Source of the DNA: Gemmatimonadota bacterium
Lineage (GTDB): Bacteria; Gemmatimonadota; Gemmatimonadetes; Gemmatimonadales; Gemmatimonadaceae
Direction of reading: 5' to 3'
Assembly: GCA_031372565.1 (NCBI GenBank)
Contig: JANMLN010000043.1
Span: forward strand, 1 to 11,114
Length of the DNA stretch: 11,114 nt
Part shown: positions 1 to 6,000 of the stretch, piece after piece
How the letters are laid out: every line of letters begins with the position of its first letter
Position numbering within the stretch: position 1 is the first letter of the stretch
Made by a program: the position numbers

Positions 1-3000
1 CGATCCCGCGTTCGCGCAGGCGCATGCGGCGCTCGGCGAATCGTACATGACGCTTGCGCTGTACGGCGCGATGGCGCCTGCGGAAGCGGTGCCCGCCGCG
101 CGCCAGGCGCTGGACCGGGCCCTGGCGCTTCCCGCACAGCCTGCCGAGGCGCTGACGACGAGGGCCTGCATCGAGGCGGTCCATGAATGGGACTGGCGCC
201 GCGCGGAAGATGATTTCCGCCGTGCCATCGTCGCCAACCCCGCGTCACCGTCGTCGTCCCAGTGGTACGCCATGAACCTGCTGGTGCCACGCGGCCGGTT
301 CGGCGAGGCGCGCGAGCAACTCGCCCGCGCGCAGCTCATCGATCCCCTCTCCCCGGTGGTGTGGTTGAGCGTCGGCCTCTCGCACTTCTACGAGCGCGAT
401 TATCGAACGGCGATCGACACGTTCGACGCGCTGATCGAACGGGACCCGACGTTCGGCGTCGCCCGGATGTTCCTCGCCCAGGCGCTCAGCGTCATGGGCA
501 ACCACACCGCCGCCCTGGGTGCGCTCGACGGCGCCGTCCAGCTGATGGGCGAGAGCCGCGAGCTGCTGGCGGCACGCGGCGTCATCGCCGCGCGCAGTGG
601 CGACGAGGCCGGCGCTCGCGAAGCCCTTGCCACCCTCGAGGCGCGGGGGGCCACGCGCTACGTCTCGCCCGTGCTCATGGCGCAGGTGCAGGCGGCACTG
701 GGAGAGCACGCGGCCGCCGTGCGTTCCATCGAACGCGCGATCACGCTGCGCGCCAGCGATCTGGTGTGGGTGGGGGTGCGCCCCGTGTTCGACGCCCTTC
801 GCAACGTGCCCGGGTTCCTGCCCGCCATGGAGCCGCTCCGCTTGATGACCCGCTCCGGACCCTTCGCGGTGCCGCTCACGGCATAGGCAGCGCCGGCGCG
901 CTACTGCGGCAGTGCGTAGTCGAACGTGTAGCGATGCACCTTCCCCTCGATCTCGATGCGGAACGTGCCGGCAATGCCGGCGAGTTCGCCGGTGCCGGAG
1001 TCTGGCACCACGCTGATGGCCAACTGCTGCGCACCGCGCGACATCGTACCGCTGTGCTGGAAGACGAACGTGCCGCGCTTCCCGCACAGCGTGCCCTCCA
1101 CGCGTTCGATCGCCACGTACGCGGCCGAGCCCTTGGTCTCGGTCATCGCCGTCAGCATCTCACCCGCGCCCGTGCCTGCGAGGTCCCCATGAAAGACCTT
1201 GTCGAGCCGGAAGCGCGCGGGGAGCGCGGCGGGTTCGGTGATCGGCGTCGTGGTGACATCGAAGGTGCCGGTGGCGACGAGCAGCATGGGGAGTTCCAAT
1301 GGAAGATGGACCGTCACGCGTGGCGCAGCAGGGCTGCAAGCTATGTCGGCCCGCGCTCACGACACAACGCGTGCGTGCGGCTAGAACGTTGCCGTGACCG
1401 AGACGAACCCCCACGTGTACGGCAGCGCTGCCCCCGTTGCGCGGAGGTAGTCGCCGGGCGTGAATCGCGCGACCCCGCCGTCAAGGCGCAGGTGTCGACC
1501 AACGCGCCAGATCGCCGTGAGGTCGGCCTCTCCACCGACGTCGCGCGGAGCGTTGGGGATGCTCGCACGCAGGACAGCACCCGTCACGTCATACGCGGCG
1601 TCGTCAACGCTCGCGCGCTGGAACGCGTGGACCGACGTTCGGATGCGCACCGAAGGCGTGGGCGACCACTGGCCGACGATTCGCTCCTCGATGGCGTTGC
1701 GCCGCCCGAGCACATCGGCGAAGCCCAGGAAGGCGTGCGCCAGCGGATACAGTTGGTCCCACGTGCCAGACTGCGCAGGCGCGCCCGCGCCCGTCCCGCT
1801 CGAGTAGTCCGCGCCGACGGTGATTGACGGAGCATGAGAACCGCCCCACGTCCGCGTCAGGTCGGAGACGAACATCCACGCCTGCACGGCGTTGCTACCA
1901 GCCGAGCCGACCTGCAGCCCACCCTCGAACTCATACGTCAACGCAGCGCCCGCCACTGCGCCGAGCGTGCGTGCCGCGATCGTCGTGCGCTGCGAAGCGG
2001 GCGCCGTGCCGGCCGCGTCAACACGCCGGACCAACGCATAGGCCTCGGTGATGGCACTTCCGCCCCGATCCCAGTTCACTTGGCCACCCCACAGACTCGT
2101 GTGCACGTCGGGCACGTTCATCCCGGCAGACACGATGTTCACCGGGTGCACCCAGAGCGCTGTGTACGCGAACGCGCCGGCCCGACCCTCGATCACGCCG
2201 CCCTGAAAGGTCCGACGCGCGTTCACCCAGTCGAGTGGCGACAGCACGCGCTCGCGACCGAAGAGAAGCTCCTGTCGGCCCAGCCGCACGGCCCAGTGAC
2301 CGGAGCCGATCGCGATGTCGCGCGCCTCCACGAAGCCCTGCTGCACATCCGCATCGTCGCGATCGGCCGTGCGGATGCCGCCGGGGAGGTCGCGGCCGCG
2401 TGCGCTCGCGACGCGCCCCTCGACGAAGGCACGCAGGTGGTCGGTCGCGTGGAGGTCGGCGTGGAGGTGAACCCGCACGAGTCCGAAGTTGTCCGTGCGC
2501 ACACCCGCGCCGCCGCCCAGGAAGTTGTCGTCGCGTTCGACGCGCGCGCGCACGTGACCGCCCAACGATAGCCAGGCCCCATCGTCCCACAGCGCGATGT
2601 GCTTCAGCGGATCCATGGCATCACCCGTCACCGGTTTCGACCAATCCTCCCGGTACCGGACCATCTCGTACGCGGGACGGGAGGCCGGGGCCTGAGCGGC
2701 AAGTGGCGCGACAGTCAGAGCAACCAGCATCGAGGAGTAGCGCACAACACGCATGGGACAGGAGCCCCGGAAAGAGGAAGCCGATCAGCGGAGTAGTGGA
2801 ACCGACGAGGGCGCATCACGTTGTGGCGCAGCCGCGTCGGCCGCGACGATCGCACCCGCGAGACGGGTGCGATCCGGCGGGATCCGGCGCTCCTGGTGAC
2901 GCACGATGCCATCCGCATCGAGCACCGTGATGATGTTCGAGTGCTCGAAGTCGAAGGACGGAAGCCGGCGATAGCTCACGCCCAGCAACGCGGCGAGCGT

Positions 3001-6000
3001 GCGGACGCTCGGCTGCGCCGCTGTGAGCAGGTGCCAGTGCGCATCGAGGTCCATGCGCGTGGCATAGGCGAGCAGCACGGCGGTCGAGTCGCGCCAGGAA
3101 TCGAACGACGCGAGTACGAAGCGCGTGCGCCCGCGCACATCAGCAGGCAGCGAGGCCTGCACCGCCTGCAGTTCGGCCGTGATCACCGGGCAGGTCATGG
3201 CGCACGAGAAGTAGACCATGGCGAGCACGACCGGTGCCCCGCGCAGCCCGGCGAGCGCAAACGGCGCGTCGGTCGCATCGGTCCACGTCGCGGGGACCGC
3301 GTACAACGATCCGCGCGGCACCGGCACTGTCGCCGCCGCTTGCGGTGGCCGCGCGGCCTGCAGATCGCGCGCGAGGCGAATGCCAAGGGAGCCGAGCGCG
3401 TACGACGCTCGCAGTGAGGCACGCAGCGCCGCCCGCATGAAGCCCGCGTAATTGGTAGGATCCGTTGCCAGCGCCGATCCGCCTGCACAGAAGAGCCCCG
3501 CGTCGGGATCTCCGTCACCACGCGACTCACCCGACGTGATCACGCTGTTGAAATCCTCCACCCACTCCCAGGTCTCGGGCCGCGCGATGGTCCCGGTCTG
3601 CATGTGGCCGCGCTCCAAGGCGAGCTCCCACTCGGCCGCGCTCGGTAGTCGCGCTCCCGCCCACTCGGCGTAGGCCGAGGCGGCAAACCACGACACGTAC
3701 ACCACGGGATCCCGGCCTGGTGCCGCACGGCCAAGCACCGTGTCGCCCGACCAGTGCCGCAGGTACGACGTGTCCGCCGCCATGCGCGCCACACGTGATC
3801 GCCGCCATTCGGGCCGCGCCACCACGAAGCGGCGGAACGCTTCGTTGCTGACGGGCTCCGTCGCGAGATCGAACGCGGCGACTGCCGACCGCCGCGCGAC
3901 GGTCGACGCGGCGTACAACGGGCGGATGCGACCCGCGGCCACGCGCTGCCAGCGCGGCGCCGGCTGCGCCGCGAGCACGGTCGCCGTCGCGCACAGCGTG
4001 GCGACGACCGCCGACAAGAGGCGATGCGGGCGCATCAGTCGTGTCCCGCACCGCCGGCCTTCGGGACGTACTTGCCGGACGCACGGACTCTCCGCACGTC
4101 GGCGACGGTCACGCCGTCACCTGCGTTGCCGAAGGCGCCGCGCACGTACGTGAGGACCGCGGCGATGTCCGCATCCTTGAGCTGGAGCGAAGGCATCACG
4201 TTGTTGTACGTCTTGCCGTTCACCTGGATCGCCCCGGACAGGCCGTGCATCACGACGCCGATGGAGCGCTCCTTGTTGGCGAGGAGGAAGTCGCTCCTCG
4301 CGAGGGGTGGAAAGGCGCCCGCCACGCCCTGTCCGTCGAGCTGGTGGCAGGCCACGCAGTTGCCGGCGAAGAGTTGCTTGCCGCGCGCGAGCAACTCGTT
4401 CCGCGACGGCTCCCTGGTCATGGTCAACGCCTTGGGGGTCACCGCAATCGCACTCGGCACGGCCTGCACCGTGCTGCCCTCGGGGAGGTAGACGAAGTCG
4501 CCCTGCTTGCCCGAGTAGACCGCGACGTTCTGCGGCACCTCCACCTTGATCATGCCCAGCGCGCCCTTGTTGAAGGCGCGAAAGATCGAGTGGTCCACAA
4601 GGATGAACGTCCCGGGCACGTCGAACGTCATCTCGACAATCGCCGAGCCGCCTGCGGGAATGAGCGTCGTCTGCCCGTTGCGCTGGTTCGCGACCGACCC
4701 GCCCTCGGTGTAGATGCGGTCGAAGATCTCGCCGATCACGTGGAAGCTCGAGACGAGGTTCGGGCCGCCATTGCCGACAAAGAGGCGCACCGTTTCGCCG
4801 ACCTTCGCGTGGAGCGCGTTGTCGCCGACGAGGGCGCCCACCGAGCCGTTGAACACCACGTAATCGGGCTTCTCGTCGAGCGCCTTCTCCATCGCGAAGC
4901 TCTGCAGTCCGGGCTCGCCGTGCTTGCCCATGGTATAGAACTCGCTCTGCAGCACGTAGTACTCGCGGTCGACGGGCGGCAACCCTTCTTTCGGCTCGAC
5001 CAGGATGAGGCCGTACATGCCGTTGGCGATGTGCATGCCGACCGGCGCCGTGGCACAGTGATAGACGTACAGGCCCGCGTTGAGCGCGGTGAAGCTGAAC
5101 TGCGAACTGTGCCCCGGAGCGGTGAACGACGACGCAGCGCCGCCGCCAGGCCCGGTGACCGCATGCAGATCAATGTTGTGGGGCATGTGGCTTGACGGGT
5201 GGTTGTTCAGATGGAACTCCACCTCGTCCCCTTCGCGGATCCGGATCATCGGTCCCGGCACCGAGCCGCCGAAGGTCCAGAACGTGTATTCCACGCCGTC
5301 CGAGAGGCGTTTCGTGAGTTCACGCGTTTCAAGGCTGACGACGAGCTTGGCCGATGTGCGTCGCATGATCGGCGGCGGCACCTGCGGGGCAAACGTGACG
5401 GCGAGCGTTTCAACCGGCAGCGGCCCGCGTGCCGCTGCGGTGAGCGTGGGCCAGGCGCCGCCGACGGTGCCTGCGGTGCGGAGAGCGCCGTCACGTCCCG
5501 CAGCGAGTGCATGTCCACCGAGCGCGACCGCGGCGCCAAGGGACAGGGTGGAGAGGGTCAAGGAAAGGCGGGGCGTCATGCGATCCTCACGAGGTGTGGC
5601 CCGCCATGCGGGCGTTTCATATCTGATTACATCATGAGCATGTCAGCTTTATGCGATGGCACCCGCGCAGGGGCGCCGTCCCGATCAGGATCGTCGTCGC
5701 CCCGCCACGTCCGCACGCGCACGAGCGGCGAACGGCCGCGCCCAGGACGCGGTCGGCGGACCCGCGGCCATGTCCGCGATCGTCGTCGTACGAAAGAAGG
5801 CGGTGACCTGGCTCGAGACACCCTGCCAGCGCTCGTGCGCCGGACACGGATTCTTGGCGGAGCACTCGGGACGGCCGAGCAGACAGTGCGGCCGCTCGTC
5901 GATCACCTCGAATGGCGCGATGACGTCGTGCAGTCGGATCGTCACGGCCGACCGCCCGAGAGAAAAACCACCCGACTTGCCGCGCGTGGACCTGAGGACC

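Follow-up and report, generated by a model that had tools for sequence, protein, structure and literature searches.

Work with Neisseria showed that AccA, a periplasmic chaperone of the PCuAC family, is needed to metalate the copper nitrite reductase (NirK) AniA, and passages of that report also state that PCuAC is missing from some NirK bacteria and raise the possibility of an alternative that has yet to be identified (PMC13006917). Another dedicated periplasmic copper helper is NosL, which is encoded with its denitrification enzyme, nitrous oxide reductase, and has an experimentally supported function (excerpts of PMC6530538). Copper chaperones of cytochrome oxidase, namely Sco1, SenC and ScoI, are extracytoplasmic proteins of thioredoxin fold in which a CxxxC-P motif is accompanied by a distal His (PMC6669012, in part).

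In Rhodobacter sphaeroides and other Proteobacteria, according to the portions of the literature consulted, the gene that immediately follows nirK encodes NirV, a secreted protein with an FGE-sulfatase domain. Jain and Shapleigh (2001) reportedly saw no phenotype on knocking out nirV in Rhodobacter sphaeroides. Passages of a survey of nirK place NirV in about 61% of genomes, in agreement with the figure quoted in the initial annotation of this locus, and the words SenC, chaperone, fused and fusion do not occur in the survey text covered, where the sole word beginning with "Sco" is unrelated (PMC4770552). The activity of NirV was called unknown in one extract (PMC10356946), and part of a review already offers, as a guess, that it helps copper insertion (PMC8139620). 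Here we describe a window of 11,114 nucleotides from a Gemmatimonadota bacterium, in which a NirV domain and a Sco1/SenC domain form one protein, NirV::Sco, encoded behind nirK.

The nirK locus and the NirV::Sco protein

The nirK gene (positions 4035..5579, minus strand, ATG start) encodes a copper nitrite reductase of 514 aa with a C-terminal cytochrome c part. The product scored 353.5 bits against the equivalog profile TIGR02376, above the cut-off of 296.3. Its reductase core spans about residues 56-360, including a Pfam Cu-oxidase_3 match at 92-198, and is followed by a Pfam Cytochrom_C match at 398-480 with C408-x2-C411-H412. Residues H134, H139, H174, C175, H183, M188, H280 and H330 were invariant among 48 aligned sequences; they include the conserved His, Cys and Met copper ligands, with C175 as the type 1 copper cysteine. 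The protein also contains an SSFHV motif, which the relevant part of PMC13086519 assigns to NirK clade II.

Directly behind nirK lies the fusion gene (2785..4035, minus strand, ATG start), which encodes 416 aa. The minus strand reads ...GAC TGA TG CGC... at the junction, and therefore the nirK TGA and the nirV::sco ATG have one base in common in a TGATG overlap. Through this arrangement, translation of the helper would be coupled to translation of NirK. The gene immediately preceding nirK, in the same orientation, encodes an NsrR-like regulator of the Rrf2 family (5685..6212, minus strand; Pfam Rrf2 E 8.8e-28, 97.5 bits), whose true start may be further in. Rrf2 homologs occurred in 12 of the 80 related loci described below, mostly just upstream of nirK. 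An AlgE-type outer-membrane porin gene (1381..2754, minus strand; Pfam Alginate_exp E 4.1e-62) begins 30 bases downstream of nirV::sco on the same strand. Porin homologs were found in only 2 of the 80 loci, with a 60%-identical one directly after sco in L007/L091, and the porin may be an operon member in this lineage only. The Rrf2/NsrR-type regulator, nirK, nirV::sco and the porin gene would be expressed together as an operon.

The fusion protein begins with a putative signal peptide (about residues 1-23; 3967..4035, minus strand), read from a hydrophobic core and VLA/AQ; residues 4-20 are helical in the AF2 model, and the N-terminus is conserved among fused relatives. Next come the NirV domain (residues 28-228; 3352..3954, minus strand), a linker (about residues 229-245; 3301..3351, minus strand) and the Sco1/SenC domain (residues 246-385; 2881..3300, minus strand). 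Comparison with the unfused loci L005, L007 and L091 indicated that, where those relatives have a stop codon, a gap and then a signal peptide for Sco, the fusion has the linker, whose length was constant across the five fused relatives. Only four cysteines are present: C15 in the signal peptide, C183 in the NirV domain (codon 3487-3489, minus strand), and C278 and C282 in the CxxxC motif of the Sco domain (codons 3190-3204, minus strand), where a His, H365, is encoded at 2941-2943 (minus strand). For the full-length protein, the AF2 model (pLDDT 88.6, pTM 0.86) suggests that the two domains may be packed in a fixed arrangement. Thus far the initial annotation held: the ORF listing and the minus-strand sequence gave its coordinates and its one-base overlap, both of its Pfam domains were found again on NirK, its FGE-sulfatase (E 8.7e-21, residues 41-145) and SCO1-SenC (E 9e-9, residues 252-376) matches recurred on one ORF, and the copper ligands that it had named, C278-x3-C282 and H365, are in the sequence.

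A Sco subfamily linked to nirK

The match of the Sco domain to Pfam SCO1-SenC (PF02630) covers profile positions 7-132 of 134 and scored 35.8 bits, above the cut-off of 22.8. Foldseek matched the fold to 3me7, 4wbj, 1wp0, 4hde and 6n5u, with target TM of 0.79-0.84 and E-values down to 5e-12. In an alignment to Bradyrhizobium ScoI (4wbj), C278, C282 and H365 match its CxxxC and His, and these three residues and P283 were conserved in 75/75 NirK-linked relatives. The genome also encodes an ordinary Sco protein that adjoins a PCuAC gene on contig C76 and scored 100.7 bits against Pfam SCO1-SenC. With a profile built from NirK-linked Sco sequences the order was reversed, with 167 bits for the Sco domain of the window vs 52 bits for the ordinary Sco. 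By these scores, the domain belongs to a distinct NirK-linked subfamily and is not a generic chaperone. The low Pfam score was itself counted against a role in copper maturation.

Like Sco1, SenC and ScoI, the domain has a thioredoxin fold, CxxxC-P and distal His positions and a predicted extracytoplasmic location (PMC6669012, in part). It differs from them in its linkage to nirK and not to oxidase genes, in its separate subfamily by reciprocal bit scores, and in being fused or, in relatives, paired with NirV. The presumed client differs as well, with mononuclear type 1 and type 2 copper in NirK as opposed to CuA for the oxidase chaperones.

The Sco proteins of related loci often carry additional metal-binding sequences. 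Segments placed before the Sco domain, after the signal peptide or the NirV domain, are Cys-rich in 35 and His-rich in 16 of the 76 loci with both parts, and 50 of the 76 have one or the other. In two Rhodothermota loci a CusF_Ec domain is joined to the Sco protein (E 4.7e-12 and 2.1e-10). These tails and CusF domains independently support the link to copper. The fused protein of the window itself has no Cys- or His-rich tail, and this too was counted against a copper role.

On balance, we lean towards a reading in which NirV::Sco is an accessory protein of two domains that works in the periplasm and is dedicated to maturation of the adjacent NirK, in effect a covalent form of the widespread nirK-nirV-sco module. 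Anatomy, conservation, gene order, recurrent fusion and the metal-binding appendages of relatives are observed, and from them copper binding, docking by NirV and NirK as the client are deduced. NirK and NirV::Sco would both be exported by their signal peptides. The Sco domain would then hold copper at C278, C282 and H365, or use its cysteine pair as a thiol-disulfide reductase, and would load or prepare apo-NirK at its type 1 or type 2 copper sites. The NirV domain would be the client-docking or adaptor part that brings Sco to NirK, and its C183 might take part in the hand-over.

This proposal resembles AccA in having a periplasmic helper for NirK copper loading, and chaperone tails rich in His/Met or Cys/His are common to the AccA case and to NirK-linked Sco; AccA, however, belongs to the PCuAC family, with a fold other than Sco plus an FGE-like domain, and its role was established by experiment whereas that of NirV::Sco is deduced from sequence (PMC13006917, in part). 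The PCuAC of this genome lies elsewhere, beside the ordinary Sco. The genetic arrangement also recalls that of NosL, a protein of an unrelated family (excerpts of PMC6530538).

Sco proteins can act as thiol-disulfide oxidoreductases instead of donating copper, which weighs against the maturation reading, and a dual chaperone/reductase role is known for them. A second way of reading the locus, which we regard as unlikely but worth weighing, is that the Sco domain is a thiol-disulfide reductase or peroxiredoxin-like protector that keeps C175 of NirK or C183 of NirV reduced, while copper comes from elsewhere, for example from the PCuAC of this genome. The setting would be an oxidising, NO-rich periplasm. 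The thioredoxin fold with its CxxxC motif is suited to such work, relatives gave weak AhpC-TSA/Redoxin matches (4e-9 and 1.5e-7 in L067), peroxiredoxins and ResA appeared at lower rank in the Foldseek results, and the invariant lone cysteine of NirV could be a redox partner. Yet the His that marks copper-binding Sco proteins is retained in every one of the 75 relatives, and the relatives with CusF fusions or with tails rich in Cys or His point to metal handling. The redox and copper roles of Sco are not mutually exclusive.

The NirV domain and the FGE-like fold

The FGE-sulfatase match of the NirV domain corresponds to profile positions 23-127 of 255. Modelled on its own with AF2 (pLDDT 88.2, pTM 0.84), the domain gave VIA Z-scores of 10.5-12.3 to SenA, EgtB, pFGE, CalU17, CarF, PvdO, PorK and TvpA, with 11.4 for pFGE and 12.0-12.3 for EgtB/SenA over about 155-171 residues, and phmmer matched its sequence to FGE 6muj at E 1.1e-8. 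FGE and its non-catalytic fold relatives (pFGE 1y4j, PvdO 5hha, PorK 9mzu and TvpA 2y3c, at Z 10.5-11.4) have the same FGE-like fold, and Tsi3 immunity proteins are a further non-catalytic example, as described in part of a preprint (10.1101/2021.05.21.445229). The family-wide WEW motif of FGE-like proteins also occurs in the domain, within a strongly conserved WEWVEDFN, and C183 was conserved in 79 of 79 cases.

The protein of the window is secreted, carries an FGE-sulfatase domain and is encoded directly downstream of nirK, as expected of NirV, and is named NirV by gene position and domain; it differs from the NirV of Rhodobacter sphaeroides and other Proteobacteria in being joined to Sco. 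NirV-only relatives of 260-300 aa and 40-63% identity occur.

When aligned to 6muj and 2q17, the NirV domain lacked the active-site cysteine pair of FGE, with A190 and A197 at those positions. The two cysteines opposite them are the copper ligands of FGE, and NirV is therefore predicted to be unable to bind copper in the manner of FGE. The domain, of about 200 aa, instead has its own invariant cysteine elsewhere: C183 aligns with a Leu of FGE. Nor does NirV::Sco belong to the EgtB/SenA group, with NCBIfam scores of 45.1 and 53.5 bits vs cut-offs of 360 and 420; those profiles matched by their C-terminal FGE-like part only, and no DinB-type domain was found in NirV::Sco. That NirV has no FGE copper site was counted against copper maturation, as was the reported lack of a phenotype in the nirV knockout.

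These data bear on a further, rather doubtful reading in which, by analogy with FGE, NirV would be the working enzyme, with NirK or a small molecule as the substrate that it oxidises or modifies, and Sco would supply copper to NirV itself. The Z-scores include FGE-family enzymes, FGE has been solved with copper (6muj, "Formylglycine generating enzyme bound to copper"), there are NirV genes that lack a Sco partner, and the conservation of C183 and WEWVEDFN could reflect catalysis. Against this, both copper cysteines are replaced, the domain is minimal and without the DinB-type partner, its EgtB/SenA scores are far below the cut-offs, and structural neighbours such as the pFGE paralogue, PorK and TvpA are not titled as enzymes.

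The three-gene module and its fused form

Among species genomes, 217 relatives were confirmed, and the loci of the best 80 of these were examined. In 72 of the 80, the gene immediately upstream in the same orientation is nirK; six of the remainder are cut at a contig end and two have nirK elsewhere. Both NirV and Sco parts are present in 76 (70 as separate adjacent genes and six fused), a count biased towards two-part loci because the query was the whole fused protein. Among the 70 separate pairs, 39 have a 4-base overlap of the nirV stop codon with the nearest start codon. The flanks vary, with NnrS, Crp/Fnr, Rrf2, hemerythrin, HemN or cupredoxin genes, and the record titles carry 12 phylum labels. 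The general feature is a conserved three-gene module, nirK-nirV-sco, and as evidence this outweighs any single fusion; the neighbouring nirV and sco genes of most relatives point to a dedicated copper-insertion helper system. We came across no account of the module in the literature searched. Sampling of 401 Pseudomonadota genomes gave a strong NirV match in six, with an adjacent Sco listed for four of them and none listed for the other two.

Thioredoxin-fold proteins are known to reduce apocytochrome c. It is conceivable, if very improbable, that the target of the module is not the NirK copper sites but the cytochrome c domain or some other client in the periplasm, which it would serve by CxxCH reduction for haem or by loading a cupredoxin donor. 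A cytochrome c domain is indeed present on NirK in 65 of the 72 linked loci, and a cupredoxin gene follows sco in three loci. However, nirV and sco are kept in the other seven, where NirK has no such domain, so the pair is not tied to it, and the Sco His ligand and copper-binding appendages suit copper and not haem.

A search of 1.84 billion cluster representatives with NirV::Sco gave 7213 matches at E<=1e-3 and, as in the earlier search, 138 at E<=1e-30. Domain scanning of the best 150 of the 7213 found both halves in 37, NirV only in 88, Sco only in 24 and NirK+NirV in one; fused forms are thus in the databases, as had been claimed, and the number in the best 150 is 37 and not the 31 estimated by length. 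What the initial annotation had drawn from the fusion, that NirV acts in copper delivery, survives in part: the fusion, the Sco ligands and the tie to nirK stand, and the link to copper gains support, whereas fusion is the exception, the Sco is of a distinct subfamily and NirV lacks the copper cysteines of FGE.

The fusion is genuine and natural, and the initial annotation was right to treat it as one protein. Four more clusters of 414-416 aa from different sources, 74-76% identical, have the same fused architecture and linker length, and the linker of the window has no signal peptide when compared with unfused relatives. Across the junction, contigs from three runs show 0 differences and 0 indels, the runs belonging to one study that may include the source sample. 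That an assembly or frameshift artefact joined two genes is, against this evidence, hardly credible, even though the assembly is of metagenome type with 201 contigs and two database entries look artefactual (P0004, with a signal-peptide-like stretch in its linker, and P0076, a NirK+NirV form whose middle looks out of frame and which contains a signal peptide internally).

Fusion is a minority state that recurs. On a tree of 73 NirV+Sco rows, the fused state must have changed independently at least four times and the window is sister (100*) to two unfused Gemmatimonadota, and nirV and sco are unfused in a genome of the same genus. The linkers are short and non-hydrophobic in 36 of the 37 fused cluster representatives.

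The nirK and nirV::sco genes in their setting

The ORF listing places nirK (514 aa) at 4035-5579 and the nirV::sco fusion (416 aa) at 2785-4035, both on the minus strand, and the junction sequence GAC-TGA-TG means that the nirK stop codon and the ATG of nirV::sco have one base in common. TIGR02376 (353.5 bits, cut-off 296.3) identifies the 514-aa product as a copper nitrite reductase, with a C-terminal cytochrome c domain (Cytochrom_C, residues 398-480) bearing C408-x2-C411-H412. It also contains the SSFH motif, which a passage of PMC13086519 assigns to clade II NirK; in Stutzerimonas, the same paper puts nirV behind clade I nirK. 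The 416-aa protein matches two Pfam families, FGE-sulfatase at residues 41-145 (E 8.7e-21) and SCO1-SenC at residues 252-376 (E 9e-9, 35.8 bits), and its cysteines are residues 15, 183, 278 and 282; residue 365 is a histidine. The initial annotation had described just such a fused FGE-sulfatase/Sco ORF overlapping the nirK stop by one base, and its ORFs, Pfam matches and one-base overlap were all reproduced, as was its database figure of 138 matches at E<=1e-30, out of 7213 in total.

The remainder of the window, which has a G+C content of 68.7% over 11,114 bases, includes two genes flanking the pair: an Rrf2-type regulator (5685-6212, 97.5 bits) upstream of nirK and an AlgE-type (Alginate_exp) outer-membrane porin (1381-2754, minus strand) 30 bases downstream of nirV::sco. 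Six further genes, none of them common to related loci, encode a TPR protein (47-886, plus strand), a DUF3224 protein (901-1317, minus), a MarR regulator (6299-6766, plus), a two-domain protein of glyoxalase/extradiol-dioxygenase type (6846-7796, plus), an Na+/H+ exchanger (7838-9097, minus) and a biosynthetic arginine decarboxylase (9097-11103, minus). A scan of 1200-6900 gave no promoter-like sites and two terminator-like sites, against 2.4 expected, and a search for an inverted repeat upstream of nirK found none. Of the 80 related loci, just 2 have the porin, and its position behind sco is common only to the window and its nearest relative; it might form a lineage-specific channel for nitrite, NO or copper. 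The homologue in the same-genus genome is 60% identical and lies directly behind sco (locus L091, 2140-3582).

A conserved three-gene module with repeated fusion

When one genome per species was scanned, 217 relatives were confirmed, and the best 80 loci were retained and typed by tblastn with four domains. A nirK gene lies directly upstream on the same strand in 72 of these loci; in six others the contig ends before a possible nirK, and in two nirK is found elsewhere in the locus on the opposite strand. Most of the 72 linked NirK genes (65) include a cytochrome c domain, which is absent from the other seven. Both NirV and Sco parts occur in 76 of the 80 loci, with the remaining four stopping shortly after NirV, although this set is skewed toward having both parts because the query was the whole fused protein. 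In a less biased sample of 401 Pseudomonadota genomes, a strong NirV match was found in six, with an adjacent Sco in four of the six and none listed for two. Beyond the three genes, the neighborhood is variable, with members of the common denitrification repertoire (NnrS, Crp/Fnr, Rrf2, hemerythrin, HemN and cupredoxin). The Bdellovibrio bacteriovorus genome that contributed one of the loci carries two separate NirV-Sco pairs (C1:950503-951620 and C1:1642504-1643696).

NirV and Sco share a single reading frame in only 6 of the 76 loci, being separate adjacent genes in the other 70, where the unfused sco genes begin with their own signal peptide and 39 show a 4-base overlap when the start codon closest to the end of nirV is used. 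The closest relatives are themselves unfused, namely two Gemmatimonadota loci (L005 and L007) and L091, from a genome with the window's genus code, where the order is nirK-cytochrome c, nirV (270 aa), sco and porin. Among 301 sampled Gemmatimonadota genomes, 17 had a match, and the single-frame form occurred only in the window's genome. In a maximum-likelihood tree built from 73 NirV+Sco rows, at least four changes of fused state are required, four being forced by the starred branches, and the window is placed as sister of two unfused Gemmatimonadota (support 100, starred). Taken with the predominance of separate genes, the tree shows that fusion arose several times upon a conserved three-gene module. 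The window protein is one of several independent fusions within that module, and the fused state is the minority form of a wider arrangement. The initial annotation is confirmed in what it observed; its reading of the fusion as tying NirV to copper delivery is supported in part. Neither a nirK-nirV-sco cluster nor a NirV-Sco fusion was found described in the literature searched, a collection with few subscription journals.

A possible maturation system for NirK

Copper nitrite reductase forms NO, the committed step of denitrification, and the enzyme therefore matters for the loss of nitrogen and the release of N2O. To our knowledge, the copper supply of NirK is understood in one case only, that of AccA in Neisseria. 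There, the PCuAC protein AccA metalates the NirK enzyme AniA, and passages of the same paper report that PCuAC is not found in all NirK bacteria and leave open an "alternative, unidentified" NirK chaperone (PMC13006917). For NirV, excerpts of the literature give its occurrence as about 61% of nirK genomes and call it not mandatory (PMC4770552), call its activity unknown (a 2023 paper, PMC10356946), or guess that it is perhaps needed for copper insertion (a review, PMC8139620). Where the candidate papers state gene links for SenC/Sco1, in the passages concerned, these connect them with NO reductase, oxidase or nos genes and not with nirK.

The nirK-nirV-sco arrangement is most likely a dedicated maturation module for NirK. 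We infer that the Sco domain would bind copper, or reduce thiols, by way of C278, C282 and H365 with apo-NirK as its client, and that NirV would be a docking or adaptor part in which C183 may take part in the hand-over. The sequence analysis itself establishes the anatomy of the genes, their conservation and order, the recurrence of fusion, the copper-binding appendages of relatives and the existence of a second, housekeeping Sco beside PCuAC. For a chaperone system of Sco type, both the presumed client and the partner domain would be new.

In the Sco half, the CxxxC and His of Bradyrhizobium ScoI have their aligned counterparts in C278, C282 and H365, and the fold is matched by solved Sco proteins in Foldseek with a target TM of 0.79-0.84. 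Together with P283, these three residues are kept in 75 of 75 NirK-linked relatives. The window Sco reaches 35.8 bits in Pfam against 100.7 for the genome's other Sco, and with a profile of 74 NirK-linked Sco sequences, from which the window was excluded, the scores are 167 bits against 52; the NirK-linked Sco is a distinct subfamily. A first rival reading would make Sco a redox protector that does not itself donate copper. On the copper side are appendages on the relatives. Of 76 loci, 35 have Cys-rich segments in the stretch that separates the Sco domain from the signal peptide (or NirV domain), 16 have His-rich ones and 50 have either kind, and in two Rhodothermota loci the NirK-linked Sco carries an N-terminal CusF_Ec copper-binding domain (E 4.7e-12 and 2.1e-10). 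No Cys-rich, His-rich or CusF_Ec appendage is present in the fused protein of the window.

Paired cysteines (CC) or His-rich runs stand just behind the signal peptide of many NirK-linked Sco precursors (for example, L054 3413-4090 and L067 6624-7235), and a CC motif is retained in the linker of fused Planctomycetota forms. The two Sco genes with CusF_Ec (L044 3398-4288 and L068 5099-5956) accompany NirK without a cytochrome c domain. In the window's own genome, the ordinary Sco directly adjoins a PCuAC gene (73.8 bits; contig C76, 8365-9281), presumably a housekeeping pair for oxidase assembly.

A second rival would make NirV an enzyme, with its copper supplied by Sco. Modeled alone (pLDDT 88.2, pTM 0.84), the NirV domain has an FGE-like fold, with Z scores of 12.3 to SenA, 12.0 to EgtB, 11.4 to pFGE, 11.1 to PvdO, 10.8 to PorK and 10.5 to TvpA. 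Both FGE-motif cysteines of Streptomyces FGE (6muj, solved with copper) align to alanines, A190 and A197, so the NirV domain is not an FGE-type copper enzyme, and it falls far under the cut-offs of the EgtB and SenA profiles. Its sole invariant cysteine, C183, is conserved in 79 of 79 loci and in 67 NirV-only sequences and lies opposite a leucine in the FGE alignment. The model of the whole 416-aa protein (pLDDT 88.6, pTM 0.86) suggests that the two domains may be packed in a defined manner.

A third rival gives the module a client other than the copper sites of NirK. The frequent cytochrome c domain of the linked NirK might invite such a reading, which is weakened by the seven loci where nirV and sco accompany a NirK lacking that domain. 

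The maturation reading can be sharpened into a tentative and rather doubtful proposal, in which cytochrome-c-fused (clade II type) NirK would have, in many phyla, a metallochaperone system of its own made up of NirV and the NirK-linked Sco. NirV would recognize the client, and its invariant cysteine and the CxxxC/His of Sco would form the copper hand-over site.

As a testable hypothesis, the module addresses both NirK copper supply and the role of NirV. If the sharpened proposal is true, NirV would for the first time have an assigned function, and the alternative chaperone left open by the AccA work would be identified. Culturable hosts of the module exist, such as Bdellovibrio bacteriovorus and Frateuria terrea (locus L015), and the naturally fused window protein, being a single chain, would lend itself to biochemical and structural study.

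Fused forms in the databases

That the fusion is an artefact is very unlikely: four further clusters at 90% clustering (P0153, P0154, P0003 and P0155; 414-416 aa, 74-76% identical) and a partial fifth, all from differing sources, carry both Pfam domains, the linker has the same length in these fused relatives and in the window lacks any hydrophobic, signal-peptide-like stretch, and the junction (approximately 3286-3363) is spanned without differences or indels by separately assembled contigs of three sediment metagenome runs, which belong to one study and possibly include the source sample. Both halves are present in 37 of the best 150 representatives, 36 of which have a short, non-hydrophobic linker. 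No relative of the fusion was found among longer proteins (729-2080 aa) at E<=1e-15, which is weak evidence.

Two other candidates were rejected. In the apparent NirV-Sco fusion P0004, the linker retains a signal-peptide-like stretch, and in P0076 (695 aa), considered as a NirK-NirV Rosetta stone, the Arg/Pro/Gly-rich middle looks out of frame and the NirV signal peptide is internal. Both proteins are probably frame artefacts and call for caution with architecture counts drawn from metagenome gene calls.

The NirV-Sco architecture does already exist in databases, where it has gone unremarked. Both domains occur in a 71-member cluster of the ESM Atlas under the automatic name "nonheme iron enzyme", and source names include "formylglycine-generating enzyme" and "protein SCO1/2". 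Another thioredoxin-fold/FGE-like pairing occurs in an 817-aa Myxococcota cluster of the ESM Atlas (Thioredoxin_4/DSBA with FGE-sulfatase), a lead only, given its feature score of 0.77. Within the best 150 representatives, NirV-like FGE domains are also found in tandem, two to six at a time, in P0018 (955 aa), P0051 (987 aa) and P0098 (1904 aa).
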